Positions 29,590 to 37,322 of a DNA stretch of 64,000 nt are shown one piece after another. Source of the stretch: an uncultured Bacteroidota bacterium (GTDB lineage Bacteria; Bacteroidota; Bacteroidia; UKL13-3); contig CAILJQ010000188.1 of assembly GCA_903834625.1 (NCBI GenBank), forward strand, positions 1,936 through 65,935, read 5' to 3'. The notes under the pieces are model-generated. The model ran no database searches. It was not told the origin of the DNA and was given only the letters and a program-made list of their open reading frames with translations. Both the position numbers and the translations under genes were made by a program. Within the stretch, counting starts at the first letter, position 1. Each line of letters begins with the position of its first letter.

Positions 29590-30213
29590 TTAATTTGCCT
29601 CTTCTTGGGCCTCTTGTTCTGCAGGAGGCGCTTCATGTAGTTGCTGGTTTTCGGCTTCTGTAACCGATTTTTGCAAAAGTAAAATGATAACAAAGCCAAT
29701 ACTAATTGCTGCATCGGCTATATTAAAAACAGGTCTGAAAAATTCGAATTCTTCACCTGCCCAAAAAGGCCAGCTTTCTGGTATGGTAGTTTGAATGATG
29801 GGGAAATACAACATATCTACTACTCTGCCATGAAACCAACTGTCGTAACCGAAGTAAACGCCGTAAAATACACTATCTACGATATTTCCTAGAGCGCCTG
29901 CAACAATAAGGATCCATCCATATATGTACCACGATTTCGTTTGTTTGTCGATAAGGGTTTTGATATAATATCCAATCACACCCACAAAAATGATACGGAA
30001 AACGGTAAGGAAGATTTTGCCCGTTTTTCCGCCAAACTCTAATCCAAAAGCCATTCCATAATTTTCTGTGAAATGTAATTTGAACCATTCACCTGCCACC
30101 GAAATTTCTTCGCCTAGGTAAAAATGGTTTTTGATATAAAATTTCACATATTGATCTATGGCCAAAACCACAAACAGAAGGGTGAAAGGAATGGAATAAT
30201 TTTTTAGGTTCAT
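29590..30213 (-). CDS. lspA: Lipoprotein signal peptidase (signal peptidase II)
   Basis: Four TM helices, conserved GALGNIVDS and FNIADAAISIG motifs, and an acidic C-terminal tail. Confidence 0.9.
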   Translation of the reverse strand: MNLKNYSIPFTLLFVVLAIDQYVKFYIKNHFYLGEEISVAGEWFKLHFTENYGMAFGLEFGGKTGKIFLTVFRIIFVGVIGYYIKTLIDKQTKSWYIYGWILIVAGALGNIVDSVFYGVYFGYDSWFHGRVVDMLYFPIIQTTIPESWPFWAGEEFEFFRPVFNIADAAISIGFVIILLLQKSVTEAENQQLHEAPPAEQEAQEEAN

Positions 30214-30355
30214 CTACATTTCAAATCTTGAAGCAAAAGTATAAAATACTGAAGGCTTACCAAGCATTTTTGGTTGAAGGCCTTTAGTTTGGATATAAAA
30301 GGAATAAAAAAGCCCTCTTGATAATCAAGAAGGCTTTTAAAAATAGGTTATTCGC

Positions 30356-31609
30356 TTATTTGTATTGTTGCAATTTAGCTTCCATACTCAAAGTAGTATG
30401 TGGCACTGCACGCAAACGTTCTTTTGAAATAAGTTTACCAGTAACCTTACAAATACCATACGTTTTGTTCTCAACGCGAATAAGGGCATTCTCTAGGTTT
30501 TCTATAAACTTACGTTGACGGGCAGCTAACTGGCTCAAGTATTCCTTCTCAGAAGTAGAAGCACCATCATCTAATTTGTTGTATGAGTTATCTGTATCTG
30601 CACCACCATTAATTCCTGGGTTTTGCATTTGCTCTAGAAGATTGTTTAACTCTTCTTTGGCAACAGATAATTTTTTATTGATTAACTCTTTAAATTCAGC
30701 TAAATCGGCATCGCTGTATCTTTTGGTTTCTGCAGTTGCTGCCATTGAATCATCTGGCTTTTCTTCAAAAACAGGAGTTTTGCTCACTACTGGTTTCAAA
30801 GGTTTTGGTGGTGTAGAAGGCTTTTTAGGAGCAACAACTACAATCTTCTTTGCCACAGGAGCCTTTTGAACCACTGGCTTTACAACAACCTTTACAACAG
30901 GTTTAGCAACTGGCTTAACAACAGGTTTAACAACTGGCTTAACAGCTATTGGCTTTTTCGCAATAGGTTTAGCAACCACTGCCACTTTTTTTGATACTAC
31001 CTTTTTAGCAGGTGATTTTTTAGCTACAGGTTTTGCGGGTGTAGCTTTTTTAGCCACTACTTTTTTAACTGCAACTGTTTTCTTCGCTACAGGCTTTTTC
31101 GCAACTGGTTTTTTTGCAATTGGCTTCTTAGCTACAGGTTTCTTCGCTACAGGCTTTTTCGCTACAGGCTTTTTCGCAACTGTTTTTTTTGCAATTGGCT
31201 TCTTAGCTACAGGTTTCTTAGCTACAGGCTTTTTCGCAACTGGTTTCTTCGCAACAGGCTTCTTAGCAACAGGCTTTTTCGCAACAGGCTTTTTCGCTAC
31301 TGGTTTTTTTGCAACAGGCTTCTTAGCAACAGGCTTCTTAGTAACAGGCTTTTTCGCCACAGGCTTCTTAGCCACAGGCTTCTTGGCCACAGGCTTTTTA
31401 GCCACAGGCTTTTTAGCTATTGCTTTTTTCGCTACAGGTTTCTTAGCCACCGGCTTGGCTGCCACAGCTTTTTTAACAATTTTCTTTGGTGCTGCTTTTT
31501 TAGCAATAGGCTTTTTAGGAGCTACTTTGGCAGCTTTTTTAGGTGCAGTTTTTTTTACTGCTTTTTTAGGAGCAGATTTCACTGCGCTTTTGGTAATTTT
31601 CTTCGCCAT
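30356..31609 (-). CDS. DksA/TraR-family protein fused to a 288-aa Lys/Ala/Pro-rich histone-H1-like N-terminal extension
   Basis: The C-terminal 129 aa (from internal Met at 30745) contain YGICKVTGKLISKERLRAVPHTTLSMEAK, typical of the Bacteroidota TraR/DksA protein found between ileS and lspA. The upstream 288 codons are a stop-free run of KKPVA-type pentapeptides. Confidence 0.7.
   Translation of the reverse strand: MAKKITKSAVKSAPKKAVKKTAPKKAAKVAPKKPIAKKAAPKKIVKKAVAAKPVAKKPVAKKAIAKKPVAKKPVAKKPVAKKPVAKKPVTKKPVAKKPVAKKPVAKKPVAKKPVAKKPVAKKPVAKKPVAKKPVAKKPIAKKTVAKKPVAKKPVAKKPVAKKPIAKKPVAKKPVAKKTVAVKKVVAKKATPAKPVAKKSPAKKVVSKKVAVVAKPIAKKPIAVKPVVKPVVKPVAKPVVKVVVKPVVQKAPVAKKIVVVAPKKPSTPPKPLKPVVSKTPVFEEKPDDSMAATAETKRYSDADLAEFKELINKKLSVAKEELNNLLEQMQNPGINGGADTDNSYNKLDDGASTSEKEYLSQLAARQRKFIENLENALIRVENKTYGICKVTGKLISKERLRAVPHTTLSMEAKLQQYK
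31070..31470. repeat. Tandem 15-bp repeat array (unit about GCTACAGGCTTTTTC on the + strand, which is AKKPV on the coding strand)
   Basis: At least 25 consecutive near-identical 15-bp units are visible. More degenerate units extend to about 30890 and about 31560. Confidence 0.85.
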
Positions 31610-31616
31610 GGTCTAA

Positions 31617-34600
31617 TTAAACTTTATCAATTTTAACCTTTAATGATTTTTCGTCGACCAAAATCTCCGTGCCATCACCAAGGGTGTTTTCGAGCCTGAT
31701 TTCAGTCGCTAAAATTTCGCTGCAAATATAGGTTTTGAATTGATTTATAGCACTTTTTATATATGAATCGTCCACAATTTTTACACTTATTTTATCGGTA
31801 ACATCCAAATTCAGCTCCTTTCTTAGGGCTTGTAGTTTGCTAATAAGCTCGCGGGCAATGCCTTCTTCCCTTAGAGAATCGCTAATGTTCACATCTAATG
31901 CTACCGTTATTTTGCCTTCATTGGCCACCTTATAACCTGGAATTTCCTTCGATAAAATTTCCACATCGCTTATCAAAATTTCGATGATTTCGCCTTCAAT
32001 TTCTATGCGAATGGCGCCTTCCATTTCTAATTTTGAGATACTTTCCTGGGTCATTTGGCCTATTTGGTCGGCAACCTGTTTCATTTTGGCTCCAACTTTT
32101 TTGCCCAAAGTTTTGAAATTAGGCTTGATACTTTTATCAATTGCCTCTATAAATTCCAATTCTTTTACATTCACTTCGGCCAATATTAAATCCTTCACAT
32201 GTGTAATTTCGTCCTTCATTCGTTGGTCGAGTACAGGCAATAGAATTTTTTGTAATGGCTGTCTCACCTTAATGTTTTCTCTTTTTCTTAAAGATAGCAC
32301 CAAAGAACTAATGCGTTGGGCATACTCCATTTGCTCTTCCAATTCGGCATTAATCCACTCGGTTTGAACCAATGGGAAATCACTTAAATGTACAGATGCA
32401 GCGGTTAACCTATTGCTCACTGAGTTTAGGTCGCGGAACAACTGGTCGGAGAAAAATGGCGCAAACGGACTCATTAACCTTGATACCGTCTCGAGGCAAG
32501 TATAAAGCGTTTGGTAAGCAGAAATCTTGTCGGTACTGTATTCACCTTTCCAAAATCTTCTTCTACATAAACGAACATACCAATTACTCAAATTCTCGCC
32601 CACAAAGTCTTGTATAGCTCTGGTAGCAGGAGTTGGATCGTAATCATCCATATGCTTTTGAACCTTTATTACCAGGGTGTTGAGCAAACTAAGCACCCAC
32701 CTATCAATTTCAGGTCTTTGTGCCAAAGGTATTTCAGGCTCACCATAAGTAAATCCGTCGATATTGGCGTAAAGGGCAAAGAAGCCGTATGTGTTGTATA
32801 AGGTTCCAAAAAACTTGCGCTGACATTCGGCCACCCCTTCTAAGTCAAACTTGAGATTATCCCAAGGGTCGCTGTTGTTCAATAAATACCAGCGTGTTGC
32901 ATCAGCGCCATATTGGTCGATGGTTTGAAAAGGATCAACCACGTTTCCTAAACGCTTACTCATTTTATTGCCATGTTTATCTAAAACCAACCCATTGGCA
33001 ATAACATTTTTGTAGCTAATGCTATCAAACAACAAAACAGATAAGGCATGCAGGGTAAAGAACCAACCACGGGTTTGGTCTACCCCTTCAGCAATAAAAT
33101 CTGCTGGGAAATTATTTCTGAAAACTTCTTCATTTTCAAAAGGCCAATGCCATTGGGCATAAGGCATTGCACCAGAATCGAACCAAACATCAATCAAATC
33201 AGCTTCACGCCTCATTTTTTCGCCCTTGCTTGATACCAAAATTACCTGGTCTACATAGGGTTTATGCAAGTCTTTTACCTCAAATGTGCTTTCCATAAAG
33301 CCAGCGGCAACTGCTTCTTTAATGCGGGTTTGTAACTCTTCCATTGAGCCAATACAAACTTCTTCACTGCCATCTTCGGTTCGCCAAATAGGTAATGGCG
33401 TGCCCCAATAGCGTGATCTGCTTAGGTTCCAATCAACCAAGTTTTCTAACCAATTGCCAAACCTTCCAGTTCCTGTATGTTCTGGCTTCCAATTGATGGT
33501 TTTGTTGAGTTCAACTAATCTGTCTTTAACAGCAGTGGTTTTAATGAACCAGCTTTCAAGTGGGTAGTATAAAATAGGTTTATCTGTTCTCCAACAATGA
33601 GGATAAGTATGTTCGTATTTCTCGATTTTAAAGGCCTTGTTCTCTATTTTTAGTTTTAGAGAAATAAGCTCATCTACACTTAAATATTTTTCAAGTTTAG
33701 GAATAATACTAGAAAGGCGTTCTTTTTGGATGCTTAACTCAATGGCTTTTTCCTCATCACTTAAATAGGCTTCTTTCACAAATCTGCCATTAAGTGGGAA
33801 AATTGGATCTAAAACGCTTTCCAAAAATTTACCACGTTTGTCAACCAAGGTAAGTGATCCCATTCCATTTTGTTTTCCAACCCTAAAGTCGTCGGCACCA
33901 AAACTAGGGGCTATATGTACAATCCCTGTACCGTCTGAAGTGGTAACAAAATCGCCAATAATCACTTTAAAGGCATCGCCATTATCTGGTTGAACATACG
34001 GTAGCAATTGCTTGTACCTTATGCCGGCCAAATCTTTTCCCAATATTTCTTTGATTACTTTAAAAGGGATTTGTTTATCGCCCGCCTTATAAGCGGCCAT
34101 GTCTAATCCTTCATTGGCAGCTGGAAAATACTTTCCTAGTAGATCTTTAGCTAACACCACATTTACAGGTAAGTGGGTATAGGCGTTAAAGGTCTGAACC
34201 AATACATAGGTAATTTTTTCACCAACTGCTAAGGCTGTATTTGAAGGCAGGGTCCAAGGAGTGGTTGTCCAAGCCAGGAAAAAGGCTTGATCCAATGAAG
34301 CATCAATATCTTTGGCATTTTCAATTTCAAACTGCGCAACAACGGTATTGTCTTTTACGTCCTTATAGGTTCCTGGTTGGTTAAGCTCGTGACTGCTTAG
34401 GCCAGTGCCTGCGGCAGGAGAGTATGGTTGAATGGTATAACCTTTATACAAATATCCCTTTTCATACAATTTCTTGAGCAAGTTCCAAAGGCTTTCAATA
34501 TAGTTGTTCTCGTAAGTAATATATGGGTCGCTAAGGTCTACCCAATACCCCATGCGGTTGGTTAATTTATCCCAAACGTCGGTGTATTTCATTACATCTT

Positions 34601-34967
34601 TTCTACAGGCTTCATTGTATTCTGCTACGGTAATTTTTTTACCAATATCTTCTTTGGTAATGCCCATGGCCTTTTCAACCTGAAGCTCAACCGGCAAACC
34701 GTGTGTATCCCAACCTGCTTTACGTTTTACTTGAAAGCCTTTTAGGGTATTGTATCTGCAAAAAATATCTTTAACAGCTCTAGCCATTACGTGGTGAATT
34801 CCTGGCATGCCATTCGCGCTGGGCGGACCTTCATAAAACACATAAGATGGCGCGCCTTCGCGGGCACTCACACTTTTTTCAAAAACCTGTTCCTGTTTCC
34901 AAAACGCCAAAACTTCCTCTTCAAATGCAGGAAAATCTAGTTTTTTATATTCTTTGTACTTACTCAT
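31617..34967 (-). CDS. ileS: Isoleucyl-tRNA synthetase (long, type-2 form)
   Basis: PSANGMPGIHHVMAR (HIGH region), KMSKRLGN (KMSKS), 1116 aa. Confidence 0.97.
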   Translation of the reverse strand: MSKYKEYKKLDFPAFEEEVLAFWKQEQVFEKSVSAREGAPSYVFYEGPPSANGMPGIHHVMARAVKDIFCRYNTLKGFQVKRKAGWDTHGLPVELQVEKAMGITKEDIGKKITVAEYNEACRKDVMKYTDVWDKLTNRMGYWVDLSDPYITYENNYIESLWNLLKKLYEKGYLYKGYTIQPYSPAAGTGLSSHELNQPGTYKDVKDNTVVAQFEIENAKDIDASLDQAFFLAWTTTPWTLPSNTALAVGEKITYVLVQTFNAYTHLPVNVVLAKDLLGKYFPAANEGLDMAAYKAGDKQIPFKVIKEILGKDLAGIRYKQLLPYVQPDNGDAFKVIIGDFVTTSDGTGIVHIAPSFGADDFRVGKQNGMGSLTLVDKRGKFLESVLDPIFPLNGRFVKEAYLSDEEKAIELSIQKERLSSIIPKLEKYLSVDELISLKLKIENKAFKIEKYEHTYPHCWRTDKPILYYPLESWFIKTTAVKDRLVELNKTINWKPEHTGTGRFGNWLENLVDWNLSRSRYWGTPLPIWRTEDGSEEVCIGSMEELQTRIKEAVAAGFMESTFEVKDLHKPYVDQVILVSSKGEKMRREADLIDVWFDSGAMPYAQWHWPFENEEVFRNNFPADFIAEGVDQTRGWFFTLHALSVLLFDSISYKNVIANGLVLDKHGNKMSKRLGNVVDPFQTIDQYGADATRWYLLNNSDPWDNLKFDLEGVAECQRKFFGTLYNTYGFFALYANIDGFTYGEPEIPLAQRPEIDRWVLSLLNTLVIKVQKHMDDYDPTPATRAIQDFVGENLSNWYVRLCRRRFWKGEYSTDKISAYQTLYTCLETVSRLMSPFAPFFSDQLFRDLNSVSNRLTAASVHLSDFPLVQTEWINAELEEQMEYAQRISSLVLSLRKRENIKVRQPLQKILLPVLDQRMKDEITHVKDLILAEVNVKELEFIEAIDKSIKPNFKTLGKKVGAKMKQVADQIGQMTQESISKLEMEGAIRIEIEGEIIEILISDVEILSKEIPGYKVANEGKITVALDVNISDSLREEGIARELISKLQALRKELNLDVTDKISVKIVDDSYIKSAINQFKTYICSEILATEIRLENTLGDGTEILVDEKSLKVKIDKV

Positions 34968-35217: not shown

Positions 35218-36171
35218 ATGAGAAAATATCTCTTATTCATCCTTGTTGTACTTTTGAGTTTGAAAGTAAGCATTGCTCAAAAGGTAATAAATAACCAGCT
35301 AAGTGCCCGGCATCAAAAGGTTGCTGGCACTAATCTATTTATGATTGTGCCAGACGGATTTATTCCTTCAAATAGTTTTCAAGGATTTCAACAAAATAGC
35401 AGTGGTTCATCTCTGGTGGTTGCAGAGTTGCCAGGAACTTTTGGTGATTTTTTGGCTGGATTTACTCCTGAGGCTTTAAAGACCAAAGGCGTTTTAATGA
35501 ATAAAAAAGAAATGCTTACCATAAATGGTAAAAAAGGGGTTTTGTATACCACTTTGCAACATGCAAATTCTACCGATTATACTAAATATATTTTGTTACT
35601 AGCCAACGGAAAAACCACCTTTATGGTAAATGGAATTTTTCCCAAACTATTGGTTCAGTTAGACAGGCCCATGCGTGAAGCTATTTTATCTATTGTTCAC
35701 CATAAAGGTAAGGCACTTGACCCATTAGAAGGAATATCTTTTGAAATAAATGTTCAGGAAACCAAATTGAAGCTCGCTCAAAATTTAACGGGTAGTTTAT
35801 TATATACTGTTGATGGAAAAGCGCCCACATTGAGTGAGGATAAAACAACCTTTATTGTGAGCTTAGGAACCACTCCCTTACCAGAAAATATGAGTGAAAA
35901 GGAAGCTGCAATGAATAGGTTAAACAAATTACCTTATACCAATTTAAGTGTAGATGAAACTGCCTCTGGGGAGGTTATTGTTGATGGAATGAAGGGTTAT
36001 GAGATTGTAGCCTATGGCCCATTAAAGGATGGAATGGTAAGTGGGGTGGTGTACCAAATGATGTTGTTTAATGTACAAGGATATTGTTTACTAATTGGTA
36101 CCTCAACCACTGAATTGAAGGAGAATATAAGTTTGTTTAAAAAGGTTGCCAAAACTTTTAAACGGAAATAA
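35218..36171 (+). CDS. Secreted hypothetical protein (317 aa)
   Basis: Signal peptide LLFILVVLLSLKVSIAQ. No recognised motif. Confidence 0.5.
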   Translation: MRKYLLFILVVLLSLKVSIAQKVINNQLSARHQKVAGTNLFMIVPDGFIPSNSFQGFQQNSSGSSLVVAELPGTFGDFLAGFTPEALKTKGVLMNKKEMLTINGKKGVLYTTLQHANSTDYTKYILLLANGKTTFMVNGIFPKLLVQLDRPMREAILSIVHHKGKALDPLEGISFEINVQETKLKLAQNLTGSLLYTVDGKAPTLSEDKTTFIVSLGTTPLPENMSEKEAAMNRLNKLPYTNLSVDETASGEVIVDGMKGYEIVAYGPLKDGMVSGVVYQMMLFNVQGYCLLIGTSTTELKENISLFKKVAKTFKRK

Positions 36172-36752: not shown

Positions 36753-37322
36753 ATGAAGCGTATGCGTAAGTTTCTTTTTCTAGTTATGTTGGTAGCCACC
36801 TTAACAGCCTCTACAAGCCCTATTACTCCCCATACATTTAACTTGCTTTCTGTTTCTCATGATGATTGGAAAACGCATACTGATAAGGGGTTTCAAATAC
36901 AATATCCATCGGAATGGGAGTTGTCTTTAGCTAAACAAATGGGGTCGAGTTTTATCTTGTTTTCCCCACTTGTAAACAAGGAGGATTTATTCAGAGAGAA
37001 TGTTAATCTTATCATTCAAGATATAAAAGGAATGAATATTGGTTTAGAAAAATATGCTCAAATTTCGGAGAGCCAAATCAAATCAATGATGACCAATTCG
37101 CAGATTTTGGAAAGTAAACTGATGGAAAAAAATGGACGTCGATTTTACCATCTTGTATATACTGCAGATATGGGAGTTTACCATTTAAAGTTTTTGCAAA
37201 ATTATTTTATTCAAAATGAAAAGGCTTATGTATTAACTTTTACGGCAGATCAGAAAACCTATGATGAATATGTAAAAGTAGGAGGTGAAATATTGAATAG
37301 TTTTTTTTTACTTAATAAGTAG
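36753..37322 (+). CDS. Secreted hypothetical protein, possibly PsbP/DcrB-like fold
   Basis: Signal peptide. GFQIQYPSEWEL ... YVLTFTADQKTYDEY ... ILNSF pattern. This is a weak inference. Confidence 0.4.
   Translation: MKRMRKFLFLVMLVATLTASTSPITPHTFNLLSVSHDDWKTHTDKGFQIQYPSEWELSLAKQMGSSFILFSPLVNKEDLFRENVNLIIQDIKGMNIGLEKYAQISESQIKSMMTNSQILESKLMEKNGRRFYHLVYTADMGVYHLKFLQNYFIQNEKAYVLTFTADQKTYDEYVKVGGEILNSFFLLNK

Follow-up and report, generated by a model that had tools for sequence, protein, structure and literature searches.

In a 64-kb stretch of DNA from an uncultured Bacteroidota bacterium (64,000 nucleotides of contig CAILJQ010000188.1, hereafter the window; GC content 37.4%), a gene on the minus strand (30359..31609, stop codon 30356-30358) was found to encode a DksA-like protein of 417 aa, in which a long polycationic tail precedes a DksA/TraR-type domain. 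We propose, with a probability of roughly 0.6, that this is one translated two-part protein, whose hairpin would bind RNA polymerase and whose tail would bind DNA, and which evolves by repeat units. The deduced protein has a mass of 44.6 kDa and a pI of 10.6.

A repetitive lysine-rich tail joined to a DksA/TraR-type domain

The tail comprises residues 1-288 (30746..31609, minus strand, as are all parts of the gene given below) and consists mostly of four amino acids, with 99 Lys, 57 Val, 53 Ala and 47 Pro among its 288 residues (K 34%, V 20%, A 18-19%, P 16%). It contains four acidic residues only, has a net charge of +95 and a pI of 11.3, and is the sole strongly Lys-rich stretch in the window. 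The core of the tail is an array of 25 in-frame pentapeptide units at residues 56-180 (31070..31444). KKPVA was observed in 19 of the units and KKPIA, KKTVA, KKAIA or KKPVT in the others, which makes five distinct peptides. A second, shorter array of VKPV-type tetrapeptides with a 12-nt period lies at residues 223-247 (30869..30943). The tail ends in a linker, KKPSTPPKPLKPVVSKTPVFEEKPDDS (residues 262-288, 30746..30826). At the protein level, its motif KP(V)VSK(T)PVFEEK is shared across the window's clade, and KPVVSKTPVFEEK is likewise a linker motif with protein-level conservation.

The peptide repeat of the core array is encoded by DNA with a degenerate 15-nt period. Tandem Repeats Finder (TRF) reported a period of 15 across 31083-31456, with 22-24.5 copies and 79-81% matches, together with higher-order periods of 60 and 75 nt. 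The 25 units comprise 21 distinct 15-mers, and exact direct repeats reach at most 36 nt (at 31109 and 31184, 75 nt apart). An original prediction, made from the letters of the window, had described the array as near-perfect at the DNA level, which proved true of the peptide only, and had counted (A)KKPV dozens of times, where about two dozen, with 19 exact AKKPV, were found. Mismatches to the consensus fall mostly at codon position 3 (56 of 63), and the codon differences within the array comprise 51 synonymous and 7 nonsynonymous ones (p = 3e-24 vs 24% expected).

The tail is predicted to be disordered, as residues 1-295 had an AlphaFold2 (AF2) pLDDT below 50 and no secondary structure, in a single-sequence model that is weak evidence. 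Pfam HC2 matched the tail at 128 bits (cut-off 40), whereas the curated NCBIfam models were missed (histone_lik_HC2, 58.7 vs 135; hist_H1_lk_Burk, 45.6 vs 80), and no [ST]PKK, the S/TPKK motif, occurs anywhere in the 417-aa protein. Because the HC2 match lacks support from curated models and S/TPKK motifs are missing, the likeness to H1, Hc2 and AlgP reads as one of composition only (Lys/Ala/Pro/Val). It was in composition, too, that the original prediction had noted a resemblance to H1 tails, Hc1/Hc2 and AlgP.

The C-terminal domain (residues 289-417, 30359..30745) was assigned by Pfam, by sequence matches in the PDB and by AF2 modelling with Foldseek. The Pfam family PF01258 (zf-dskA_traR) scored 28.9 bits on the full protein and 31.2 bits on the C-terminal 129 aa (cut-off 24.9), and the PDB sequence matches were Chlamydia DksA 6PTG (1.8e-9), the zinc-independent DksA2 4IJJ, 2KQ9 and Escherichia coli DksA 1TJL. 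The AF2 model, built on a 40-sequence alignment (mean pLDDT 70.5), contains helices at 27-56 and 75-110 in model numbering, a beta hairpin and C-terminal helices. The helical hairpin corresponds to residues ~300-329 and 348-383 of the protein, and the tip loop to residues 330-347 (ADTDNSY...LDDGAS); this loop, 57-74 of the model, has low pLDDT. The top five Foldseek matches in the PDB came from DksA2 4IJJ and DksA 1TJL, 7KHI_M and 5VSW_M, some of these chains being RNA polymerase-bound (prob 0.99-1.00, E 6.6e-3 to 6.3e-2, TM 0.46-0.52).

As the original prediction had noticed, the zinc-finger cysteines are largely missing from this domain. The positions of a C4 zinc finger (CxxC-x17-CxxC) are taken by C387, T390, S408 and A411, and C387, within YGICKVTG, is the single Cys in the protein. 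Among 40 family members only the first Cys of the zinc-ligand positions is invariant, so that a zinc-less finger is the rule in the Bacteroidota family, and the loss is compatible with superfamily membership, a like loss being known in DksA2 (4IJJ) and 6PTG. HMMER placed LDDGAS against VDRAAQ of 1TJL in a gapped, weak alignment, in which the D74 equivalent is kept and an Asn stands at D71; family members retain the D and G of the LxDG motif. The NCBIfam models of canonical DksA gave 49.9-52.7 vs 115.5 bits (TIGR02420), 41-45 vs 105 bits (NF033459) and 29-33 vs 289 bits (NF008045), and the YteA/YlyA family TIGR02890 gave 48.2-50.6 bits vs a cut-off of 134.4. By sequence and predicted fold, the domain is a divergent, zinc-less member of the DksA/TraR superfamily and a non-canonical DksA. 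It belongs to the ileS-linked branch, whose members in the Pedobacter, Sphingobacterium and Flavobacteriales loci examined are short proteins (122-137 aa).

Translation of the tail and the gene neighbourhood

The long form is very probably translated, as judged from the reading frame and its conservation among relatives. An internal ATG, Met289 (30743..30745), stands at the start position of short orthologues and is preceded by 288 stop-free codons, whereas the other two sense frames hold 22 and 27 stops. A random 288-codon stretch of the same base composition would be open with p ~2e-9, a value that is indicative only in a region of such low complexity. Among 80 species-representative genome loci with the C-terminal domain, 39 encode long forms (203-465 aa, with a Lys-rich tail in frame with the conserved domain) and 41 encode short ones (122-137 aa). 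Lys-rich tails of 130-340 aa ahead of the conserved domain were observed in these 39 of 80 genome loci and in 60 of 80 metagenome loci, the search of the latter being biased to long forms since its query contained part of the linker. In-frame cationic tails thus occur in ~100 related loci, with quite different repeat units: KKPVA, KKAVA and KKPLA are mixed in the nearest genome relative (L001), a 15-aa unit, AKPAPKKVVAKKVAA, is repeated 14 times in L003, and the unit in L021 is KKVVAKKPVVKKAAA. The longest open reading frame (ORF) of L021 begins MGRRVQRLKSRTESVLLLSLTRTNMAAGK and overlaps the ileS match upstream of it (gap -11); translation probably begins at the second Met (MAAGKANAKK...), in keeping with the MAKK/MATKK start of other long forms.

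Many of the long relatives lack a start codon near the short-form position. No ATG, GTG or TTG is present within 20 codons before the KRYSD motif in 31 of 83 of them, and near the Met289 position ATG occurs in 28 and GTG or TTG in 24. Relatives in the window's own clade without a start codon near the short-form start include L082, L084, L085, L087 and L089, and Met289 is not kept in the closest relatives, its equivalent being Asn in L001 and TTG (Leu) in the nearest metagenome relative (L081). In the short-form loci, the frame upstream of the ATG is open for 0-38 codons only. The long-form ATG (31609) is spaced 7 nt from the ileS stop, as in relatives; in most long forms, 9-20 nt separate the ATG from the end of the ileS match, and short genes are similarly placed. 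In the genome loci, ileS directly precedes 36 of the 39 long genes and 35 of the 41 short ones. Public gene calls in close relatives (P0004, P0010, P0012/P0013, P0016 and others) set the start variously at full length, at a tail-internal GTG or at the internal Met.

The sequence of the tail varies in a manner consistent with constraint on the protein. Within the window's clade, Lys makes up 33-35% of the tail and the net charge ranges from +67 to +113. When the window is compared with L081, 84 synonymous and 31 nonsynonymous codon differences fall in the tail, the latter mainly V/I/L/A exchanges, with zero Lys lost. The antisense frame that shares the wobble positions is nearly as conserved, (ATGFF/ATGFL)n with 6 distinct peptides; the synonymous test within the array shows coding constraint and not strand, and it was from the comparison of relatives that the strand was assigned. 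Two plus-strand ORFs, 31383..31616 (77 aa, (ATGFL)n) and 30576..30869 (97 aa), were rejected as genes and regarded as by-products of composition; antisense ORFs stay open here because the sense tail has no Tyr, His or Gln codons.

These comparisons of the lengths and starts of relatives, in which tails are always in frame despite differing repeat units, bear on several points of the original prediction. Its placement of the gene in an ileS-dksA-lspA slot and its reading of the Met codon at 30745-30743 as residue 289, preceded by 288 stop-free codons, were borne out, and its view that the tail is translated is supported by the in-frame tails in ~100 loci, the 31 of 83 relatives without an internal start and the conserved linker. 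A normal length of 125-130 aa, which it had assumed, applies to about half of the genomes (41/80, 122-137 aa), with long forms in the other 39 of 80.

The gene is flanked by ileS (31617..34967, minus strand) directly upstream and by lspA, encoding signal peptidase II (29590..30213, minus strand), downstream. A terminator-like hairpin on the minus strand (30308..30338, 14 pairs with a T-rich tail) begins 18 nt past the stop codon of the DksA-like gene, and a TAnnTTTG box (30234-30241, minus strand) lies ~21 nt ahead of the lspA start. Given these two elements, lspA may have a transcript of its own, apart from that of ileS and the DksA-like gene. A candidate Bacteroidetes-type -7 box, TATATTTG (31723..31730, minus strand), is located within the 3' end of ileS, with the long-form ATG 114 nt downstream, and none was found on the minus strand from 30745 to 31609. 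The promoter assignments are weak, because the -7 motif shows no enrichment across the window (108 matches vs 97 expected) and a sigma-70 promoter scan was uninformative (9 found vs 13.8 expected). Scans for tRNA genes and for Rfam matches at gathering score returned none across the 64-kb window. Elsewhere in the window, a 317-aa ORF (35218-36171, plus strand) has a signal-peptide-like N-terminus by eye and no Pfam match, and adjoins a PsbP-family protein (36753-37322, plus strand; PF01789, 32 bits).

Repeat turnover and distribution across Bacteroidota

Comparisons between closely related loci indicate that the length of the tail changes in frame. L001, the nearest genome, is the metagenome-assembled genome "uncultured Bacteroidetes bacterium Ja_bin-4299", and L081, the nearest contig, is Ga0315904_10259116. 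The protein of L081 has 422 aa and differs from that of the window by exactly one 15-nt unit, with a DNA identity of 94.8% in the C-terminal domain and 85% in the tail. The C-terminal DNA of L082 and L084 is identical and their tails differ by a 24-aa indel; L094 and L095 are again identical in C-terminal DNA, with 10-aa and 25-aa gaps between them; the difference between L100 and L101 (98.2%) is 5 aa. These length variants come from metagenome assemblies, in which several short contigs end within the tail. The pairs L089/L091 and L139/L144 were dropped, their C-terminal identities of 0.25-0.34 being meaningless (truncated or misregistered ORFs). The exact 417-aa protein was absent from a collection of 15 billion proteins, hence no same-strain copies were available for comparison.

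According to the model that we favour, the tail would evolve through in-frame gain and loss of repeat units, under selection that would act on its composition and charge and not on its exact sequence. Change of copy number by slippage, as originally predicted, agrees with the in-frame indels between near-identical variants, but simple slippage is less favoured because the DNA array is degenerate. The 36-nt identity at 75-nt spacing could support the gain or loss of whole blocks in frame.

Tails appear in at least four places within Bacteroidota when the C-terminal domains are arranged by neighbour joining, although the resulting tree was built on 122 residues and is not robust, so that the count of gains and losses is approximate. 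The first place is the window's clade (L001-L004), and the second is a large Chitinophagales clade that includes the cultured Chitinophaga sp. Ak27, Segetibacter koreensis and Danxiaibacter flavus. Tails are also borne by the group L031/L021/L034 and by L022, which is nested in tail-less Sphingobacteriaceae. A profile search of 1.84 billion cluster representatives found at least 50 residues before the domain in 117 of the best 150, where long forms are over-represented since divergent tails split into many clusters. The tails of these 117 have a median length of 193 aa (maximum 332 aa) and a median net charge of +44, and 79 of the 117 passed stricter thresholds for Lys and for K/A/P/V. The tail in the window (288 aa, +95) is among the longer and more charged of those examined. 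Judged across these homologous sequences, the design is common in Bacteroidota and not peculiar to this genome. No paper describing the Bacteroidota long form was found in the literature searched, the coverage of which was incomplete.

The gene context differs between the two forms in the genome loci, lspA being located, within the up to 3 kb of downstream sequence covered per locus, in 8 of the 39 long and 39 of the 41 short ones. In most long-form loci of Chitinophagales (among L032-L080, Chitinophagales and relatives), ileS is still directly upstream but no lspA was seen in that downstream stretch, and the ileS-X-lspA synteny is partly broken. A different elaboration of the family was seen in P0149 (534 aa), which has two tandem DksA-like domains, a Cys-rich segment and a Lys-rich C-terminal end.

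Relation to known proteins and alternative explanations

The closest known counterpart is DdbA (SCO2075) of Streptomyces coelicolor, which has an H1-like plus DksA-like layout (Aldridge et al. 2013, PMC3643593). Its N-terminal H1-like domain bound and condensed DNA in vitro, as seen by electrophoretic mobility shift assay and atomic force microscopy, and the C-terminal domain alone did not; the ddbA mutant shows altered nucleoid condensation and supercoiling, and overexpression of DdbA suppresses a relA phenotype (PMC3643593). The proposed role couples nucleoid binding to control of RNA polymerase, and the authors found orthologues, with tails of variable length, in streptomycetes only (PMC3643593). 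SCO2074 is lsp (PMC4941574) and SCO2076 is isoleucyl-tRNA synthetase (PMC3276577), so that by gene numbering DdbA occupies the same ileS-X-lsp slot as the gene in the window. The two proteins share a Lys-rich repeat domain that precedes a DksA-like domain in the same frame, as well as a gene position between ileS and lsp (the adjacency in Streptomyces following from the numbering) and a tail length that varies between relatives. They differ in that the DdbA tail has 93 aa with five (S/T)(A/T)AKK repeats, against 288 aa with ~25 KKPVA units, and in that DdbA keeps a four-Cys zinc finger and D71/D74, against the one Cys and the unclear tip motif here. They also belong to different phyla, and the comparison used the published description of DdbA. 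The tails of DdbA and of the Bacteroidota proteins probably arose independently, since the intervening lineages are without tails.

Other relatives resemble one half of the protein. Short ileS-linked TraR/DksA-family proteins of Pedobacter, Sphingobacterium, Mucilaginibacter and Flavobacteriales are 60-70% identical over the C-terminal 127 aa, have the same C-T-S-A zinc-less finger and mostly sit in the ileS-X-lspA slot, but lack the tail. DksA2 of Pseudomonas aeruginosa (4IJJ) and Chlamydia trachomatis DksA (6PTG) were the best matches by sequence and fold (22-24% identity in Foldseek alignments); both have partly or wholly replaced Cys ligands (C-T-C-A in DksA2 and C-S-T-K in 6PTG, compared with C-T-S-A in the window) and no polycationic extension. 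YlyA of Bacillus subtilis is reportedly DksA-like and is said to bind RNA polymerase; unlike the window protein, it has no tail and has a role specific to sporulation and germination. The ylyA gene adjoins ileS (PMC5282499). We infer that the window gene, DdbA and YlyA are positional equivalents and probably evolutionary ones too. The H1-like polycations (Hc2, AlgP, the Anaeromyxobacter CarD domain, HupS/MDP1 and mycobacterial Ku) share Lys/Ala/Pro-rich polyanion-binding repeats with the tail, whereas their folded partner domains differ, and the likeness is compositional and not one of demonstrable common ancestry. As cited in PMC9239181, the number of algP repeats differs between clones (Deretic & Konyecsni 1990), and, as cited in PMC2919716, CarD joins an RNA-polymerase-associated module to an H1-like/HMGA domain (Garcia-Heras 2009).

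By the proposed mechanism, the C-terminal hairpin would engage RNA polymerase, as DksA-family factors do, and the tail, given its charge of +95, would bind the DNA backbone without sequence preference. Such binding would concentrate the factor on the nucleoid and may add to the compaction of DNA. The model draws on DdbA, because DdbA shares the layout and the ileS-X-lsp slot and this mode of action has been partly demonstrated there; by that analogy, we lean slightly towards DNA tethering as the function of the tail. Gene structure, coding constraint and fold class are established, as are the charge of the tail and its repeat behaviour; the binding of RNA polymerase and DNA and the physiological role are what we infer.

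Several observations weigh against the proposal of a translated, DNA-tethered factor. The genome does carry an ATG at the short-form start (30743..30745), and the synonymous/nonsynonymous test within the array cannot, alone, separate the sense from the antisense frame. The support for the fold is modest, with a best Foldseek E-value of 6.6e-3, a TM of ~0.5 and a mean model pLDDT of 70.5; no clear counterpart of the DxxDxA tip motif of canonical DksA could be made out in the long tip loop, and the NCBIfam scores for DksA, DksA_like and yteA are far under their cut-offs. Some long relatives have little net charge in the tail (P0205, for example, at -1), which suggests that polyanion binding may not be the universal role of the extension.

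It is conceivable that the 129-aa protein alone is made from the ATG at 30745, with the upstream 864 nt being an untranslated repeat. The exact coincidence of this ATG with the start of the short orthologues and the public gene calls of P0004, P0010 and P0016, which begin within the tail or at the internal Met, speak for such a product, yet we consider it extremely improbable in view of the 288 open codons (against 22 and 27 stops in the other sense frames), the ~100 relatives with in-frame tails, the 31 of 83 with no possible internal start, the Asn in L001, the protein-level conservation of the linker, the mostly synonymous differences between the window and L081 and the lack of a -7 box inside the tail region. 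Production of both isoforms, 417 aa and, by way of Met289, 129 aa, which would give a nucleoid-bound and a free pool, is unlikely but less so. The internal ATG has an A-rich upstream context, and ATG near this position in 28 of 83 long relatives, GTG or TTG in 24 more and the TTG of L081 fit this arrangement, whereas the 31 of 83 without a start codon show that it is not a general feature of the family, and no promoter-like box is found internally. An error of assembly in the count of 25 units, the gene itself being real, appears improbable. Repeats are prone to mis-assembly and short-read contigs of relatives often stop within the gene (P0001-P0007; seven edge-truncated loci), but the units differ at wobble positions, the longest exact repeat of 36 nt is shorter than usual reads and k-mers, and the independent contig L081 aligns unit by unit with one 15-nt indel.

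Other alternatives concern the function of the tail. Its main partner could be another polyanion, such as polyphosphate, RNA or ribosomes, or it could drive condensates, as has been proposed for the Lys-rich C-terminal domain of AlgP and polyphosphate granules. The charge of +95 makes the tail a generic polycation, and it has neither sequence-specific nor S/TPKK motifs. AlgP, whose tail is comparable, influences how polyphosphate granules are spaced, and its tail was discussed as a possible partner of polyphosphate in coacervation (PMC9239181). DdbA, the sole tested protein of the same layout, nevertheless binds and condenses DNA through its tail and, in vivo, influences supercoiling and the compaction of the nucleoid (PMC3643593). 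The fused DksA-family domain would put the protein on DNA anyway, and roles on DNA and on other polyanions can coexist. We rate a different main partner as rather unlikely. The fast turnover of repeat unit and length, the patchy distribution in the C-terminal-domain tree, the low-charge tails in some relatives and the many tail-less Bacteroidota would suit a tolerated, largely neutral low-complexity expansion without a function of its own. A neutral tail is nonetheless quite improbable, as at least four clades and 117 of the best 150 cluster representatives have retained tails, the window clade keeps K at 33-35% and a charge of +67 to +113, no Lys is lost relative to L081 and the DdbA tail is functional.

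The preferred reading, of one translated protein with a polymerase-binding hairpin and a DNA-binding tail, extends a design that is known in principle from Streptomyces and is widespread in Bacteroidota. DdbA has so far been seen as restricted to Streptomyces, and the Bacteroidota proteins add a second, much larger set with the same layout in the same ileS-linked slot; this pattern of distribution suggests convergent evolution. As the set includes cultured Chitinophaga, Segetibacter and Danxiaibacter, a nucleoid-tethered polymerase factor becomes testable in another phylum. Inconsistent annotation of the start and contig breaks inside the tail make the long form easily missed. The tails also offer a clean natural case of in-frame repeat turnover with selection for composition over sequence. 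As a bolder and still tentative extension, an ileS-linked DksA-family factor may have gained a polycationic tail at least four times in Bacteroidota and once in Streptomyces under recurrent selection for nucleoid anchoring. If true, tail-bearing Bacteroidota would have in it an abundant nucleoid-associated protein or a scaffold for condensates, linking the compaction of the chromosome with transcription, and the length of its tail would be a fast-evolving tuning parameter, variable between strains.

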